From a virus, in IMG/VR virus record IMGVR_UViG_3300025585_000026: a stretch of DNA of 32,802 nucleotides; one strand, written 5' to 3'. Numbering within the stretch: position 1 is the first letter of the stretch; each line of letters begins with the position of its first letter. Shown here piece by piece: positions 11,544 to 21,078 of the stretch. The notes beneath the pieces are model-generated. The model was not told the DNA's origin. It did not search any database and saw only the letters and a program-made list of their open reading frames with translations. The translations under genes and the position numbers were made by a program.

Positions 11544-12019
11544 AGCACGACATGGGAAACACAGAACAAGAAAAGGAATACCATGAAGTGCCAGAACGCA
11601 ATCTTTGGTTTGCAGTCATTGAGCGAGCGTTAAAAGATTACTGCTACTTCTTTGATAGACTTATCAACCCAGGCTCAACGCATCTCGTATACTCAGACGG
11701 TCTAAATCATAAAGACCAGTTTCAACTCAAAGCTATATACGAGTTTAACCGCCTACGTTGGTTTCTATTTGAGAAAGAGCCAGCAGAGTTCAACCTAGCC
11801 TACCTTGCTGATCAACTATACGAGGATGGAGACGGTGCCGCTGCAAGCATCCGTAAGGAAGCTATTCGGCAATTCAAAACTCACTTTGATGAAGCAGAGC
11901 GTCGTGGGCAATTCATGAAGATAATACACTACATCAAAGAGAATACTGGCGTAGCGTACTCAGAAGCAGCGGATAAGGTAAGCCCGTTACGCACCAAGCG
12001 ATACAGGCTTAGTCGCTAG
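11540..12019 (+). CDS. hypothetical protein (last gene of the plus-strand block)
   Basis: 159 aa with an ATGA overlap to the upstream gene. Confidence 0.6.
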   Translation: MKHDMGNTEQEKEYHEVPERNLWFAVIERALKDYCYFFDRLINPGSTHLVYSDGLNHKDQFQLKAIYEFNRLRWFLFEKEPAEFNLAYLADQLYEDGDGAAASIRKEAIRQFKTHFDEAERRGQFMKIIHYIKENTGVAYSEAADKVSPLRTKRYRLSR

Positions 12020-12201
12020 CGTTTCTTCTTATCCTTGAGTGACCACACTTGTGACACGCCATAAAGCACAGCACCACCTACCACTGGCTCTGCTGCTGCT
12101 GCAAGGTTATGTGCATCAGCCTCAGACACGCCAATGGTAAGCAAGCTACCAGCGGCAAGCGTTAGTAAATGTCTGATTATCGAAAATATAACAAGTTCCA
12201 T
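12016..12201 (-). CDS. putative holin (two TM helices, basic C-terminus)
   Basis: 61 aa. Two hydrophobic segments, IFSIIRHLLTLAAGSLLTIGV and AEPVVGGAVLYGVSQVW, then KDKKKR. SD AGGAAG lies 7 nt upstream. Confidence 0.55.
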   Translation of the reverse strand: MELVIFSIIRHLLTLAAGSLLTIGVSEADAHNLAAAAEPVVGGAVLYGVSQVWSLKDKKKR

Positions 12202-12974
12202 GCGATTCTTCCTGCTTTAGCGTATGTATAAATAGAATGTCTGCAATCACGCTTACTTGGATATTGCCATGGTCCAACATTGCAATTCATCCATGCTGAC
12301 CAATAAAACCTTACATCACATTGCCTAGTCTTTGCGGCAAAGCGTTTTAAGTCAAGGATAGAGTTAGCCTCCGTGCCATCCATATCAGCTATGCACGGTT
12401 TCCTAAGAGTAGGATTAGTTCCATGTCGCTCACAGACGGTACCTCGTAAACAGGACGCTTTGAGAGGATTATCGACAATGACACAGCTAGGCAAAGTAGC
12501 AGATACAGCACTAACGAGAGCTTTTCTAGCATGTCCATTCAAGTCACACTCCAGACAAGGCGAGACGTAACAAGTTAGCGGACCTTTTGACTGCTCAATC
12601 CGCTGCTTTAATCGTAAGGCTAATACGTCTAGCCGCTTTCTTAATCGTGACTCTGGTATCTTTGCTGCTCTATTGGCTGAGACTATCGTGTATCCATAGA
12701 ACACATCATGTCTCTGGCATCGCTTGTTTCTAAGACACGGACCATTGACTAAATGCACTCGTATGGTCTTACGTTTCTTTTGTCTCAAGATTGTATCAAC
12801 ACACTCACAACGCTTGCCAAACGAATCTTCAAGCCAACCAACTGTTATAGGCTTGCCATGCCATGTAGCAAGAGTTTTATCGCAGTTCCAAGTGCTGTTG
12901 CAGAGTCCTATGTAACTCACGCCTTGAGCTTGTGCAGAGGCTATAAATGCCAACAGCACAATGAGCACTCTCAT
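12177..12974 (-). CDS. secreted 16-cysteine basic protein of unknown function (in lysis cassette)
   Basis: 265 aa. Signal peptide MRVLIVLLAFIASAQA|QG and 16 Cys in the mature part. I recognise no family motif. Confidence 0.7.
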   Translation of the reverse strand: MRVLIVLLAFIASAQAQGVSYIGLCNSTWNCDKTLATWHGKPITVGWLEDSFGKRCECVDTILRQKKRKTIRVHLVNGPCLRNKRCQRHDVFYGYTIVSANRAAKIPESRLRKRLDVLALRLKQRIEQSKGPLTCYVSPCLECDLNGHARKALVSAVSATLPSCVIVDNPLKASCLRGTVCERHGTNPTLRKPCIADMDGTEANSILDLKRFAAKTRQCDVRFYWSAWMNCNVGPWQYPSKRDCRHSIYTYAKAGRIAWNLLYFR

Positions 12975-13213
12975 TTTTCTAGTATCCTATCAATCTTCTG
13001 CTCGATACGCTCCAAGCGGTCCTTGATACTACTAACCTCATGCTGCATCACTTCAACGTGCATAGTAAGCTGATATTTGCTTTGCTCTAACTCTTTAAGC
13101 GAGTTCTTTACTTGTCTGTAATCCATGCCAACCAGCGATATAACAACGCCAATCACGCCTTTAATTAGCAGGTCAATCCAATACCTAAGCTGTGTAACAT
13201 CACCTTCCGTCAC
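12971..13213 (-). CDS. N-terminally anchored coiled-coil membrane protein (i-spanin-like or holin/antiholin candidate)
   Basis: 80 aa with a GTG start. TM segment LLIKGVIGVVISLVGM followed by heptad-like LKELEQSKYQL...IKDRLERIEQKIDRILEK. Confidence 0.45.
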   Translation of the reverse strand: MTEGDVTQLRYWIDLLIKGVIGVVISLVGMDYRQVKNSLKELEQSKYQLTMHVEVMQHEVSSIKDRLERIEQKIDRILEK

Positions 13214-13598
13214 AGATTTCTAGCTCCGCTTCACTATACGTATTCATAGCAGTCATGAAATTAGCGAGAGCTGCACGGCTAGAAAGAATCGCCGTTTCTG
13301 TGCCTATCGTTCCGTACATAAGACCAAGCAAAATACATCCGTGCGTATCCTCTTTGGTGTTACCAGCATGAATAAGTATCTGGCTACGTCCTGGGACATC
13401 CATTACTTGGAATACTCGTCCAAACTTAGGCGAGTTATGAATCTTAATCTTGTACTTGCCAGCAGGAATACAACTTTGCTGCGGCTCGTTATCAAACCAA
13501 CGGTCCTCAAGCGTAACAAACATAGGACGAGCATCAAGGCATAACACGCCAAGCATGGCATCTTTATACTCTGATACTCGTACTAATTTGAGCTTCAT
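13200..13598 (-). CDS. DUF5675-like / YkuD-like (His...Gly-Cys motif) protein, candidate cell-wall enzyme
   Basis: 132 aa. TLEDRW..N...SCIPAGKYKI....SPKFGRVFQV.DVPGRSQILIHAGNTKEDTHGCILLG matches the recurrent phage family I recall as DUF5675, with an L,D-transpeptidase-like H-x-G-N...GC motif. Confidence 0.55.
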   Translation of the reverse strand: MKLKLVRVSEYKDAMLGVLCLDARPMFVTLEDRWFDNEPQQSCIPAGKYKIKIHNSPKFGRVFQVMDVPGRSQILIHAGNTKEDTHGCILLGLMYGTIGTETAILSSRAALANFMTAMNTYSEAELEICDGR

Positions 13599-15026: not shown

Positions 15027-17306
15027 CTATGCTTTACCCAATACAGACTTTATATTTACGCCTAACTCTTGAGGATCAAGATTTAAAGCATTTACAATAT
15101 CACCAACCGTAAACTTTTGCTTAGAACCGTACTTTGCTAAAACTTTGTCTAGTTTTGATTGACCAACAGCATCTGCAATTTTAGCTAAATCATAATCATC
15201 ATACTTTGACAGATTCTTATCTGTCGTGGTTCTAACTATATCACTTTCTGCAACCGTATTATTTGAATACTCGTTACGCTTTGTGATTACTTTGCTTACA
15301 TATTTCCTAGTCTCTGCTGGAACGTATGCTACTTCTAAAATGTTTTCCCAAGTTGGTTTCAATCCTTCTTTCTGCGTTCTAGCAATAGCTCGTTGCAGAT
15401 TACCTGGACCCCAATTATATGCTGCCAATGCTAGTTTCTCATCGCCAAACTTATCCATCATTTGATTGATATAGCGTGTGCCACCTTCAATGTTCTGCAC
15501 TGGATCTGTTGGGTCTACGCCAAGTGATTTAGCAGTCGCTGGCATTAACTGCATCAAGCCAGTAGCTCCTTTCTTGCTTTTAGCTTGAGGCTTACCAGCA
15601 GATTCAGTCTGAATAATAGCTTTGATAAGCGGAGGTTGATTGCCGATCAAATCACTGATGTTTTGTTTTTCAGGAACAACAACTTGCCTACCAAGCGTAC
15701 CAAGTAGTTTTTCAACTTCATCAGCAGTAAATGTTGGGGTTGGTTCTTTTGGAACTTCAACTAACTTGCCACTTGTAGTTAGTTCTAACTTTGTTTCAGA
15801 AGGCTTAATGTAAGGCGTAGCAAGTTGAGCAAATGTTCTGCCAGTACCACCTTCAGTAAGAGCATATCCAAGTTTAGATGCTATCTGCTGAACTGCTGGA
15901 TCCTCCATGATTGTAGCAAGATAGTTTTTGCCAGCTTGTGAGCGTCCAGCTTGCATCAATGCGCCAGCAAGCGCAGGAACAACATTACCGCTTTGAGTGC
16001 TCATTTGTGCAAGGGTACCAGCACCACCAGATGTTCTAGCCTGTCCAGCAATATCCTCCATCACATTACCAGACAAAACTTTTCCAGCTTTGCCAAGGAA
16101 CGCAGTTGATAAATCAGCAGCATCGCCAAATTGTTTGTTAAGTGTTTTGACAGTTTGTAGAGCTTCTTCTGGAACTTTGCCAAGTTTAGCCAATATTCCA
16201 AGTCTATTCTCTATCTCCTCTCGCAAATCTTGTCTGATTGCTTTTTGTACTGTTGGAGTGAGAGGACTCTGATCCCAAGCATAGTTAAGACCAGTTTTTG
16301 CTTTTTGCAAATCAAGCAAACTACCACCTTCCTCAAACTGAGAAATGATAGCATCTCGCTCTTTCGTTATTAGCTTTTGCGCTTCTTCCTTCGCAGTACC
16401 ACCAAGATTAGAAAGGTACTTGTTTACATTCTTCATTTGGAAATCTGCAAATGGGTCTGCAAGTTTATTTGCATCCTCAAGTACAGTTCCAAGTTCGGCA
16501 CCAAGTGTACGCTTATAAACCTCGATGTTTGCAGCATTAGTCAAAACATCTGCTTCGGGATTTATAAGACCTTTGCTCTCCAAAGACTTTAATGTTTGAA
16601 CAACTGGAATCTTTTCCGCTGATGGAATACCAGCTTTCTTAGCTACATACTCTTTGATGTTTCTGCTTACATCCGCAGGACTAAGATTATACGCAGATAG
16701 TTTCATTCTATCAGCTTCGGTGCCAAGTCTAGTTAAAAATCTGCCACCTACATTTGAAACAACTGAGCCAGCAGTTCCAAGTGCGCCAGTAAGTAATCCA
16801 GTTGAAATCCGTGAATCTCCTTCGCCAGCTCCATATCCAGCTACAAATGCTTGTGATGGGACACTAGAAACAAGAGCTTGAACTACTTTACCACCAGGGA
16901 CACTAACAGCTTTTTCAACAACAGGCTGAACGAGTTTTCCAACAGTGCTAGTAGCAGTTCCAGTTTTGCCAACTTGTCCGATAGCTCCAAGAGGATTAAG
17001 AACTAATCCACTCGCAATAGGTAATGCAGTTGAAACTACTGGCGATGATGCAGAAAACGCTTTGTTTTGAGCAGCTATATCAGCCAACTCTTGCTCATAA
17101 GAGCGACCAGAAAACAATGAAGCAACTTTAGCCTCTGCCTCATCTGCAAGATTAAATGTTGGTCCTGCTAAATAAGAACGAGCATAGCCAAGCACCTTAT
17201 CAAGCGTTGGTCCATAAGATGTAGGAGCAACTGTAGGAGTAACAGGCTTTCCAAGTGCCGCTAACGATGCTTCAATATCCGCTGCTTGATTATTTGGATC
17301 CGCCAT
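15027..17306 (-). CDS. internal virion protein with lytic transglycosylase (SLT) domain
   Basis: 759 aa. IIQTESAGKPQAKSKKGATGLMQLMPATAKSLGV...GGTRYINQMMDKFGDEKLALAAYNWGPGN is the SLT catalytic E-S ... GLMQ ... AYN signature, at roughly nt 15385-15615. Confidence 0.85.
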   Translation of the reverse strand: MADPNNQAADIEASLAALGKPVTPTVAPTSYGPTLDKVLGYARSYLAGPTFNLADEAEAKVASLFSGRSYEQELADIAAQNKAFSASSPVVSTALPIASGLVLNPLGAIGQVGKTGTATSTVGKLVQPVVEKAVSVPGGKVVQALVSSVPSQAFVAGYGAGEGDSRISTGLLTGALGTAGSVVSNVGGRFLTRLGTEADRMKLSAYNLSPADVSRNIKEYVAKKAGIPSAEKIPVVQTLKSLESKGLINPEADVLTNAANIEVYKRTLGAELGTVLEDANKLADPFADFQMKNVNKYLSNLGGTAKEEAQKLITKERDAIISQFEEGGSLLDLQKAKTGLNYAWDQSPLTPTVQKAIRQDLREEIENRLGILAKLGKVPEEALQTVKTLNKQFGDAADLSTAFLGKAGKVLSGNVMEDIAGQARTSGGAGTLAQMSTQSGNVVPALAGALMQAGRSQAGKNYLATIMEDPAVQQIASKLGYALTEGGTGRTFAQLATPYIKPSETKLELTTSGKLVEVPKEPTPTFTADEVEKLLGTLGRQVVVPEKQNISDLIGNQPPLIKAIIQTESAGKPQAKSKKGATGLMQLMPATAKSLGVDPTDPVQNIEGGTRYINQMMDKFGDEKLALAAYNWGPGNLQRAIARTQKEGLKPTWENILEVAYVPAETRKYVSKVITKRNEYSNNTVAESDIVRTTTDKNLSKYDDYDLAKIADAVGQSKLDKVLAKYGSKQKFTVGDIVNALNLDPQELGVNIKSVLGKA

Positions 17307-19449: not shown

Positions 19450-21078
19450 TTATACCTGTCCACCTAAATCATAACGTACTTCAAAGCCAATAAATTGGCA
19501 TGGTGAATTTTTAATGCTTCCACCAAATCGAATAGCCGCACAATGTCCCTGCCCTGCTGTTGCAAAACGGTCAAAGATATAATCAATATCTGCTGACCAT
19601 GGTTGATAATATGCTGCAACTGTTATCGGTGGGACTGCTGGATCGCCAGGTACTCTATATGGAGTATATGCAGCTCCATTGCTTCCCCATTGAGAACCCC
19701 AAGCTGTAAATAGACTAATAGGTGTAGTAACTGAAGTAACAACCGCTTGTCGTTTAAAGTCCGTATCCAAGCCAAGGTTAAGCGTTAATCCTCGCTTTGC
19801 CTTCATTAGTGGTCGTATATCTTTGAAGGCTTTATAGTTGCCTCTACTGCCATAAAACGAAAACGCACACCGAGCTTGAAACGCTATAGACTCACCAGTA
19901 CCAGTGCCAACTACAGCATCAGCATAACCAGTCTCACCTTGATAAATCTTGCCAGTATTTGAGCCATAAAAAGGCAAGTTATTGTACTTGCAAGAAGCAA
20001 TACTGTGCTCTGTTGAATACAATGAAAACTGCGTCCATGCTTTGCTATCAATGCTATAAACAAGAAGGGTTGTAGTTGATGTTGAATCTGGCAAGGTAAC
20101 GTACACTCGTCGTCCCGCTGGATAGAAAAACCCATTCCACATCTCACTCAAAGCAACTTGTGTTGCATACTGAGTAATCAATGGATTTATTTTATAGCTA
20201 ACTACATTCAATGCTTGTTCTGGGTCTGTTTGAAACAATGCGGATACAGGGACAATACCTTGTTGAGTAATTATCCAAACATCTTGATTAACACGAATAA
20301 ATGCTTTTGCTCCAAGCGGCTTTCCTATAATGAAATGTGCTACAAGCGACCAGTTTGGATCATCCGGTGAATATCCAGAGTAAAGAACTATTTCTCCTTC
20401 GCTGGATACAGCCATAAACAAATCTTGCGATGTCTGAGCTGTCTGATTTGTATAACTGTTAGTAAAAAGAAGATAACCACCACGACGAAAGATGCCACTA
20501 AAGTCGTATGATTTGAGAGTAGAAGAAGCACCAACAAAAGTTGCGTTTTCTGTGGCGTGATACCACATCAACATTGAATTCTTTTCAACAAAGTATAGCC
20601 GCAAGCGATAAGAAGATACGTTGCAAAGTTTTGCCAAACCACCAGAAGGACCACCACCAGCATTTATATCTGCTGCTACTCCTGTTCCTGTATAAACTTG
20701 TGGAACATCCAATCCGCTGTTGTTAGCAACATAAAAGTTTCCACGGAACATCTCCTTGTTCCATGCACCAGAATTATAACCTCCAACCTTGCTGATATTA
20801 GTTACAGTGCCAGTGCTATTGATTGAATATAGCTTTGTACTTTGTGCTGCGATTAGTTGAGCTGTTCCATCTTGCAATGGATATTCGTGCATGAATTGAA
20901 CAGGTGATGCAGTTCCTAAATCAGCAAATTGTTTATATCCAAGACGTACTGTTGGAGCACCAGCGCCAGGAAAGATATTTACAAGTTCCAATGCACTTGT
21001 TGGCTCCATGTTATCAATAGGAGTCACCAAGTCCAACCCATTGGATGGTGGTGGCATTGTATAACCTTGGAGCGCCAT
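19450..21078 (-). CDS. large virion structural protein, possible tail tubular/nozzle protein
   Basis: 542 aa, beta-rich and aromatic/Gly-rich. Assigned from its position in the tail/internal-protein region and its size only. Confidence 0.35.
   Translation of the reverse strand: MALQGYTMPPPSNGLDLVTPIDNMEPTSALELVNIFPGAGAPTVRLGYKQFADLGTASPVQFMHEYPLQDGTAQLIAAQSTKLYSINSTGTVTNISKVGGYNSGAWNKEMFRGNFYVANNSGLDVPQVYTGTGVAADINAGGGPSGGLAKLCNVSSYRLRLYFVEKNSMLMWYHATENATFVGASSTLKSYDFSGIFRRGGYLLFTNSYTNQTAQTSQDLFMAVSSEGEIVLYSGYSPDDPNWSLVAHFIIGKPLGAKAFIRVNQDVWIITQQGIVPVSALFQTDPEQALNVVSYKINPLITQYATQVALSEMWNGFFYPAGRRVYVTLPDSTSTTTLLVYSIDSKAWTQFSLYSTEHSIASCKYNNLPFYGSNTGKIYQGETGYADAVVGTGTGESIAFQARCAFSFYGSRGNYKAFKDIRPLMKAKRGLTLNLGLDTDFKRQAVVTSVTTPISLFTAWGSQWGSNGAAYTPYRVPGDPAVPPITVAAYYQPWSADIDYIFDRFATAGQGHCAAIRFGGSIKNSPCQFIGFEVRYDLGGQV

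Follow-up and report, generated by a model that had tools for sequence, protein, structure and literature searches.

An exported, cysteine-rich protein with a predicted TIM-barrel fold as a candidate accessory lysis enzyme in a phage lysis cassette

Results and Discussion

The locus considered here lies in IMG/VR virus record IMGVR_UViG_3300025585_000026, and the window referred to throughout is the whole stretch of that DNA which was analysed (32,802 nucleotides). On its minus strand a four-gene lysis cassette runs from a DUF5675 gene, through a gene for an 80-residue protein with a transmembrane segment and a coiled coil, to the gene under study, which encodes an exported 265-residue protein (hereafter the target), and ends with a holin gene (Table 1). 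The target start overlaps the stop codon of the 80-residue gene as ATGA (tcat on the plus strand at 12971-12974), and its 3' end shares 25 nt with the start of the holin gene (12177-12201); both overlaps had been described in the original prediction, an earlier reading of the letters of this DNA, and both are correct. On the evidence given below we consider the target to be a candidate accessory lysis enzyme, distinct from the endolysin of its phage.

Table 1. Coordinates in the window of the target gene, its conserved motifs and the other genes of the cassette.
Feature	Position	Strand	Basis or remark
Coding sequence of the exported 265-residue protein (predicted TIM barrel)	12177..12974	minus	Open reading frame list, translation; ATG at 12974, stop codon 12177-12179
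Type I (Sec) signal peptide MRVLIVLLAFIASAQA, codons 1-16	12927..12974	minus	Sequence reading; predicted cleavage after A-Q-A
SPCLECD motif, end of β4	12543..12563	minus	Invariant Glu142 (codon 12549-12551) flanked by C140-x-x-C143; β4 = residues 132-140
E182-R-H184 on strand β6	12423..12431	minus	His184 invariant, Glu182 at least 90% conserved (alignment A2, model)
Asp199 codon, I-x-D-x-D-G loop after β7	12378..12380	minus	Invariant family-wide (alignments A2, A3; sequence reading)
61-residue holin gene	12016..12201	minus	Pfam PF23987 Phage_holin_10, 31.7 bits versus cut-off 27, E = 1.5e-7
80-residue protein, N-terminal transmembrane segment and coiled coil of about 50 residues	12971..13213	minus	Translation
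132-residue DUF5675 protein (YkuD/C82-like fold), no signal peptide	13200..13598	minus	Pfam PF18925, 111 bits versus cut-off 26.7, E = 3.5e-32

The N-terminus of the target (MRVLIVLLAFIASAQA, followed by QG) combines a basic n-region, a 10-residue hydrophobic core (VLIVLLAFIA) and an A-x-A site, and this signal peptide is kept across 54 aligned relatives (alignment A1), which bears out the Sec signal peptide of the original prediction. Judged from its residues, the signal peptide is probably of the cleavable type, with cleavage expected after A-Q-A. There is no lipobox in the target, the first cysteine being residue 25, within strand β1, and the mature protein is a 249-residue globular barrel with no C-terminal transmembrane segment according to the sequence and the model described below. 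The N-terminus also departs from that of a signal-arrest-release (SAR) endolysin, which has a weakly hydrophobic transmembrane segment of about 20 residues, rich in Gly, Ala and Ser and left uncleaved, in that the h-region is short (10 residues) and strongly hydrophobic, and is followed by A-Q-A. A role for the target as a spanin was considered and rejected on account of the absent lipobox, the globular enzyme fold and the lack of a C-terminal transmembrane segment; o-spanins and u-spanins have a lipobox with a lipoylated Cys, joined in o-spanins to a small, Pro-rich mature protein and in u-spanins to a C-terminal transmembrane segment. In composition, the target holds 16 cysteines (residues 25, 31, 56, 58, 80, 86, 135, 140, 143, 164, 175, 181, 194, 219, 231 and 244), equivalent to 6.0% of its residues versus 0.65% in the 30 other window proteins (binomial P = 4e-11), and with 18 Lys and 25 Arg versus 12 Asp and 7 Glu it has a pI of 9.7. 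The cysteine count and the strongly basic character that were remarked upon earlier both stand.

An AlphaFold2 model derived from a 54-sequence alignment (pLDDT 93, pTM 0.90) has eight β-strands alternating with helices, and the fold is confidently predicted to be a minimal (β/α)8 TIM barrel, termed minimal because helices are missing after β5 and β6. Six segments that had been read from the letters as strands (TVGWLED, RVHLVNG, YVSPCLECD, CVIVDNP, CIADMDG and RFYWSAW) coincide with β2, β3, β4, β5, β7 and β8 of the model, and the accompanying suggestion of an alpha/beta enzyme is supported by a modelled barrel that appears enzyme-like and by invariant acidic and His residues. A Foldseek comparison of the model with the PDB returned weak matches only (E of at least 3.7e-4, TM-score about 0.45-0.49), led by the glycoside hydrolase barrels GH5 CtCel5E, GH29 fucosidases, GH26 and GH59, with LeuA, KDO8PS and sugar-epimerase barrels ranked lower. 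A second model, of a 390-residue relative (pLDDT 93.8), consists of the barrel plus an all-β (β-sandwich) C-terminal domain, and matches GH29, GH2, GH35 and GH5 enzymes in which a barrel and a β-sandwich are laid out likewise. For both models, nearly all of the top-ranked PDB matches are TIM-barrel glycoside hydrolases, and the leading matches have probabilities of 0.97-1.0. In BFVD, three proteins of 'uncultured Caudovirales phage' (A0A6J5M538, A0A6J5SYH0 and A0A6J5MYV4) have both fold and family in common with the target (TM-score 0.70-0.83, 22-24% identity, E down to 3e-17); two of them are longer (375 and 451 residues) and none is annotated. Other barrels that were considered find no support: the GH25 or Rv2525c-like lysozyme barrel, the NodB deacetylase and the GDPD/PLC phosphodiesterase are absent from the listed Foldseek matches, and for a xylose-isomerase-like metal barrel the sugar epimerases and AP endonucleases rank low and the motif patterns were not recognised.

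Conservation and cysteine co-variation were assessed over 136 diverse relatives, with identities down to 21%. Glu142, His184, Asp199, Asn230 and Arg242 are invariant in this set, while Asn77, Leu141, Glu182, Gly200, Trp225 and Pro239 are conserved in at least 90% of its members. On the model, these residues map at or just past the C-terminal ends of β3, β4, β6, β7 and β8 (Glu142 after β4, Glu182 and His184 on β6, Asp199 after β7, Asn230 and Arg242 after β8), and the C-terminal ends of the strands are the usual location of TIM-barrel active centres. The cysteines are not invariant; their presence or absence among the relatives sorts them into eight pairs (r = 0.66-1.0), namely 31-58, 80-86 and 175-181 (each r = 1.0), 135-164 (0.98), 25-56 (0.94), 140-143 (0.89), 194-219 (0.87) and 231-244 (0.66). 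Such co-variation is good, though indirect, evidence that eight disulfides form, and therefore that the protein folds in an oxidising compartment, and it lends independent support to the eight disulfides that had been suggested from the even number of cysteines. The C-L-E-C motif around Glu142 (12543-12563, minus strand) could be a redox-sensitive disulfide beside the active site in this subfamily.

The known folds to which the target can best be compared are the TIM barrels of clan GH-A (GH5 such as CtCel5E, 4u3a; GH26; GH2; GH35) together with the GH29 fucosidases, which supply the best Foldseek matches for two independent models. Besides the (β/α)8 barrel (pLDDT 93), the target shares with these enzymes two invariant acidic positions, a Glu where β4 ends on its C-terminal side and a carboxylate directly following β7, as well as a His on β6 that is conserved and a Trp after β8, and the long-form relatives of the target carry a C-terminal β-sandwich, as do many such enzymes. 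The differences, however, are considerable. TM-scores lie at 0.33-0.49 and identities at 8-12%, there is no Pfam or profile match, and the target barrel is far smaller (about 250 residues), without helices after β5 and β6 and with up to eight disulfides. Furthermore, the β4 Glu is preceded by the conserved Leu141 instead of the Asn of clan GH-A, and after β7 the invariant Asp199, within the D-x-D-G of I-x-D-x-D-G, stands in place of the Glu nucleophile. An Asp nucleophile at position 199 is possible, though it is not the clan GH-A signature. Membership of clan GH-A is not claimed, as the fold fits while both catalytic signatures fail and profile matches are lacking.

The target belongs to a large family. 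A word-indexed search found 201 relatives, and the 120 listed are 42-91% identical to the target and come without exception from metagenomes; an exhaustive profile search gave, at E <= 1e-3, 870 clusters at 50% identity, of which 149 reach E <= 1e-30. Many of the 870 are 380-470 residues long and carry an extra C-terminal domain. Export signals are present in 124 of 148 representatives (22 with a lipobox and 102 with another hydrophobic N-terminus), and most of the remaining 24 resemble truncated gene calls. Basic charge also extends across the family, the pI lying above 8 in 82% and the median net charge being +13. Scans of the target against Pfam, NCBIfam and PHROGs gave no relevant match, the 136 relatives had none in Pfam at E <= 1 or in NCBIfam at E <= 0.1, and PDB sequence profiles produced noise only (a superantigen and a cyclodipeptide synthase, at E of at least 0.1). 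The earlier remark that no lysozyme, amidase, transglycosylase or peptidase motif could be recognised thus agrees with the Pfam, PHROGs, NCBIfam and PDB scans, in which spanin families were likewise absent. Neither tblastn with the target and the distant members P0129, P0215 and P0218 against 50,697 GenBank phage records, nor megablast with 22.8 kb of the window against GenBank phage records, returned a match. In 185,579 species genomes, the only occurrence of the family was on one contig of a metagenome-assembled genome, so that prophages gave no host assignment. The extra domain of the long forms, exemplified by residues about 283-390 of P0129 (L004 6847-7170), is a conserved all-β domain of about 110 residues with the pattern GC...DG..GFLWK.SD...R..WR...C....P..RID. 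Pfam gives no match to it, and in a profile search of a 5.8-billion-protein set no relatives outside the family came up, so the domain yields no clue to the substrate.

The placement of the target in a lysis cassette, also put forward in the original prediction, is confirmed by relatives from the viral contig collection and other sources. In these, a tail fibre gene is followed by the DUF5675 gene, the gene for the 80-residue protein, the target, the holin gene and then convergent early genes, and the cassette order is kept wherever their sequence spans the cassette, with the four genes at >80% coverage in 72 loci, in which the target is a fixed member. The 80-residue gene is syntenic in about 80 loci, and the holin gene directly follows the target in every relative whose sequence reaches that far. 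What the original prediction missed is the DUF5675 gene two positions upstream, which is the better endolysin candidate. Its product shows weak YkuD and Tlde1 similarity in the Pfam scan, and a 2026 preprint placed DUF5675 with C82 peptidases by structure; we regard it as the probable cytoplasmic endolysin of the cassette, with a lytic activity suggested by that structural likeness. In cultured Salinibacter and Vibrio phages, DUF5675 genes lie where the late module ends, adjoining genes for transmembrane proteins. With DUF5675 as query, tblastn detects homologues in phages of Vibrio, Salinibacter, Bacteroides and Ralstonia as well as in a Microviridae record of 5 kb. The 80-residue gene overlaps both of its flanking genes, and its product has weak Rz-like and coiled-coil matches only. 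Candidate roles for this protein are those of an i-spanin-like protein, an antiholin or a regulator, and its analogues elsewhere have a C-terminal transmembrane segment. At the downstream end of the late operon (12016-12019), the holin stop codon (12016-12018) overlaps the stop codon (12017-12019) of a convergent plus-strand gene for a 159-residue protein, which leaves no intergenic room for a terminator.

Within the cassette, conservation is lowest for the target in 67 of the 72 loci, its median identity being 49% versus 61% for the DUF5675 protein, 65% for the transmembrane/coiled-coil protein and 73% for the holin. Such divergence is what would be expected for a variable substrate, and would suit a soluble depolymerase of capsule, exopolysaccharide or O-antigen that acquires in the periplasm a fold stable outside the cell and, once lysis has released it, would detach the progeny from host surface polymers or strip neighbouring cells. 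That exo- and endo-glycosidases combining a TIM barrel with a β-sandwich are the nearest folds, that eight disulfides would fit an extracellular life, and that family members are found outside lysis cassettes and in bacteria are all consistent with this idea. However, depolymerases typically swap domains, whereas here both catalytic core and fold are preserved throughout and no such swapping is seen; the place between endolysin and holin is kept in four lineages, which points to a role in lysis; and export would be needless for an enzyme that lysis sets free in any case. We therefore consider a depolymerase quite improbable.

The fact that export precedes lysis might also be taken to suggest an effector unconnected with lysis, for example a periplasmic enzyme for superinfection exclusion or receptor modification riding on the late transcript, and related phages do have other exported lipoproteins in their early regions. 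Yet the target gene overlaps both adjoining lysis genes, unrelated cassettes preserve its neighbourhood even though their endolysins differ, and late expression is ill-suited to exclusion, so that we attach only a slight probability to such an effector. The early-region lipoprotein genes of the related phages encode 91-93 residues (L001 11780-12055, L021 6825-7106 and L065 7328-7609 in locus coordinates, all on the minus strand), and an example begins with MKRLILVTIVTAC. The window is without such genes, which may be exclusion or moron genes.

The layout of the cassette recurs in three further phage lineages (four in all) with other endolysin families. In L004, a transmembrane/coiled-coil protein, a 158-residue SLT protein, the family member and a 74-residue holin-like protein follow one another. 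L089, L091, L092 and L093 have a coiled-coil/transmembrane protein, a Phage_lysozyme (GH24) and the family member, after which a holin-like protein of 72-80 residues is found in L089, L091 and L093; the upstream genes of L097 are as in L089-L093, and the L092 and L097 loci stop short of the holin position. In L100, a coiled-coil/transmembrane protein and a GH24 lysozyme precede a family member that is a lipoprotein and a 71-residue holin-like protein. The endolysin slot is filled by DUF5675, SLT or GH24 in every cassette examined, and a signal peptide is absent from all adjacent endolysins whose N-termini were inspected. BLASTP between the small cassette partners of the different lineages, including the 80-residue protein and its L004 counterpart, found no homology, so the parallel between lineages is one of architecture only, and the transmembrane segment of the coiled-coil partners sits at opposite ends in different lineages. 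Three unrelated endolysin families are thus exchanged while the TIM-barrel gene stays, which argues that the TIM-barrel protein does something that the endolysin does not.

Against this, it could be proposed that the target itself is the real endolysin. It would then be a peptidoglycan glycosidase of a new kind (a muramidase or glucosaminidase) that is exported by Sec, builds up in the periplasm and is set free to act once the membrane potential has been collapsed by the holin, and the DUF5675 protein would be tail- or virion-associated. In some Gram-positive phages, secreted endolysins wait in this manner until the holin collapses the membrane potential. The overlap of the target gene with the holin start, the glycosidase-like fold and the basic charge, as in many Gram-negative endolysins, would be in keeping with such a role, and the lytic activity of DUF5675 rests on structure, one GenBank record naming a homologue a tail fiber protein. 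In the other lineages, however, the family member has beside it an evident endolysin (Phage_lysozyme or SLT) that bears no signal peptide, and a second wall cutter would be redundant there. Moreover, there is no sequence or profile likeness to lysozyme, glucosaminidase or GH25 families, GH25 barrels are missing among the 50 Foldseek matches listed, and a free, soluble periplasmic muramidase would defeat the timing by the holin. On balance, it is unlikely that the target is the real endolysin.

Known Sec-exported or SAR endolysins include Lys44 of Oenococcus phage fOg44, Lyz of P1 and R of phage 21. As with these, the target appears to be a cassette enzyme that reaches the periplasm or wall via Sec before the holin acts, and disulfide chemistry is used in P1 Lyz as well. 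The known examples nonetheless belong to lysozyme families and serve as the sole endolysin of their phage, whereas the catalytic domain of the target is unrelated and, in the cassettes examined, the family member always adjoins a separate cytoplasmic endolysin candidate; unlike that of the SAR endolysins, the signal peptide of the target looks cleavable. PMC7143992 and PMC7312051 deal with Sec-exported and SAR endolysins.

Lysis by Gram-negative phages is understood as a sequence of three steps, which are carried out by the holin, the endolysin and then a spanin or disruptin. The capsid protein encoded in the window is 27-35% identical to those of Myxococcus Mx8/Mx9, Bradyrhizobium, Stenotrophomonas and Brucella Tb-like phages, and as such the host is probably Gram-negative, where an outer-membrane step is normally needed. 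Judged by relatives of 33-35 kb, the 32.8-kb window is nearly a whole genome, and no frame of it holds a credible lipoprotein open reading frame or an o-spanin or u-spanin candidate. About 15% of Gram-negative phages are without a known outer-membrane step (bioRxiv 10.1101/515445). A further possibility is that the target is an enzymatic substitute for spanins. In this case it would be a periplasmic hydrolase which, once the wall has been degraded, weakens the outer membrane or severs its attachment to the wall (lipopolysaccharide core, bound polysaccharide or tether), as a Gram-negative counterpart of mycobacteriophage LysB. In addition to the lack of a spanin candidate in this nearly complete genome, the periplasmic pre-positioning would be as with spanins, lipoproteins make up about 15% of the family representatives (the cassette member of L100 among them), a protein with a transmembrane segment and a coiled coil always accompanies the cassette member, and the target is strongly cationic, as is the phiKT disruptin (bioRxiv 10.1101/515445). 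On the other hand, in L095 a family member coexists with Rz-like spanins (phrog_739, phrog_812), the target itself is not a lipoprotein, the coiled-coil partners differ between lineages in the end that bears the transmembrane segment and have no detectable homology, and the structural matches include no known outer-membrane-acting enzyme of such a fold. We assign a low probability to this substitution.

Extra lysis factors directed at layers other than peptidoglycan have been described, among them the mycobacteriophage esterase LysB (PMC5707550), corynephage LysZ (bioRxiv 10.1101/2025.06.24.661397), spanins and the phiKT disruptin (bioRxiv 10.1101/515445). The target resembles these in being a third or fourth gene of a cassette whose product would act outside the cytoplasmic membrane. 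It differs from them in kind: LysB is an α/β-hydrolase esterase, LysZ a membrane protein, the spanins a pair of transmembrane protein and lipoprotein, and the disruptin a small cationic peptide, none of them being a TIM barrel or having detectable homology to the target. The closest known systems, then, resemble the target in working, export route or fold, and none is homologous.

Two further genes of the window are of interest with regard to the cell wall. A 759-residue protein (15027-17306, minus strand) matches SLT and lytic tail or internal virion transglycosylases over residues 540-715 (PHROG E about 1e-34), and is probably a wall-cutting protein of the ejection stage, separate from the lysis cassette. 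A 542-residue protein of the structural module (19450-21078, minus strand) matches phrog_5107 at E = 1e-56; the annotation of phrog_5107 is 'amidase'.

The reading that we favour, and to which we assign a rough probability of one half, is that the gene encodes an accessory lysis enzyme rather than the main endolysin, namely a putative hydrolase that is placed in the periplasm in advance and has an anionic envelope glycan as its substrate; a glycosidase is the most likely type of hydrolase. An exported lysis enzyme had been ventured in the original prediction. Of this, the export and the cassette membership stand, whereas the target is more likely to be an additional lysis factor than the main endolysin, because a DUF5675, SLT or GH24 endolysin candidate occupies the neighbouring slot, and a wall-degrading activity is something we infer. 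In the proposed sequence of events, the target would be made late and exported by Sec, oxidised by the Dsb system of the host, and held in the periplasm until the holin frees the cytoplasmic endolysin (DUF5675 in this phage). It would then hydrolyse an anionic envelope glycan that the endolysin leaves uncut, which may be a different peptidoglycan bond or a polysaccharide associated with the wall or outer membrane, Glu142 and Asp199 serving as the putative pair of catalytic acid/base and nucleophile. Such action could complete the breakdown of the envelope for this phage, in which no spanin can be recognised.

Several observations weigh against this proposal. Family members are also found outside lysis cassettes: that of L087 lies between Thy1 and ribonucleotide reductase on a 114-kb phage contig, that of L095 lies 1.5-2 kb from the spanins noted above, and those of L086, L101 and L102 are in bacterial contigs. 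As such, the family is not lysis-specific, and would instead represent a general exported enzyme that some phages have recruited. The structural likeness to glycosidases is weak, at TM-scores of 0.33-0.49, and generic for TIM barrels, and the classical GH-A signature is lacking, given the β4 Glu without a preceding Asn and the Asp rather than Glu after β7. Last, a hydrolase that waits in the periplasm would have to be harmless before the holin acts, for which we offer no explanation.

A bolder proposal, which we put forward tentatively and hold to be rather unlikely, is that the target represents an unrecognised class of lysis protein, in which a Sec-exported, Dsb-oxidised TIM-barrel hydrolase waits in the periplasm, takes over the third step of Gram-negative lysis in phages without spanins and dismantles a layer that the endolysin leaves behind. 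That layer might be, for example, the connection between outer membrane and wall or an envelope glycan, and control over the enzyme might lie with the transmembrane/coiled-coil protein or with the CxxC pair on either side of the catalytic Glu.

Conclusions

An exported, enzyme-like family that keeps its place in the cassette while the endolysin is swapped among three families points to a separate function in lysis, and with about 870 clusters at 50% identity, known only from metagenomes, the family may mark a lysis function that has gone unstudied. Even under the modest reading, that of a second exported wall hydrolase, such a gene would be unusual among Gram-negative phages. A compact, cationic enzyme made hyper-stable by its predicted disulfides may furthermore be of antibacterial interest. 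Should the proposed function prove true, the paradigm of phage lysis would gain a new enzymatic component, and the finding would point to a mechanically important structure of the envelope, as LysB and LysZ did for the mycolata.

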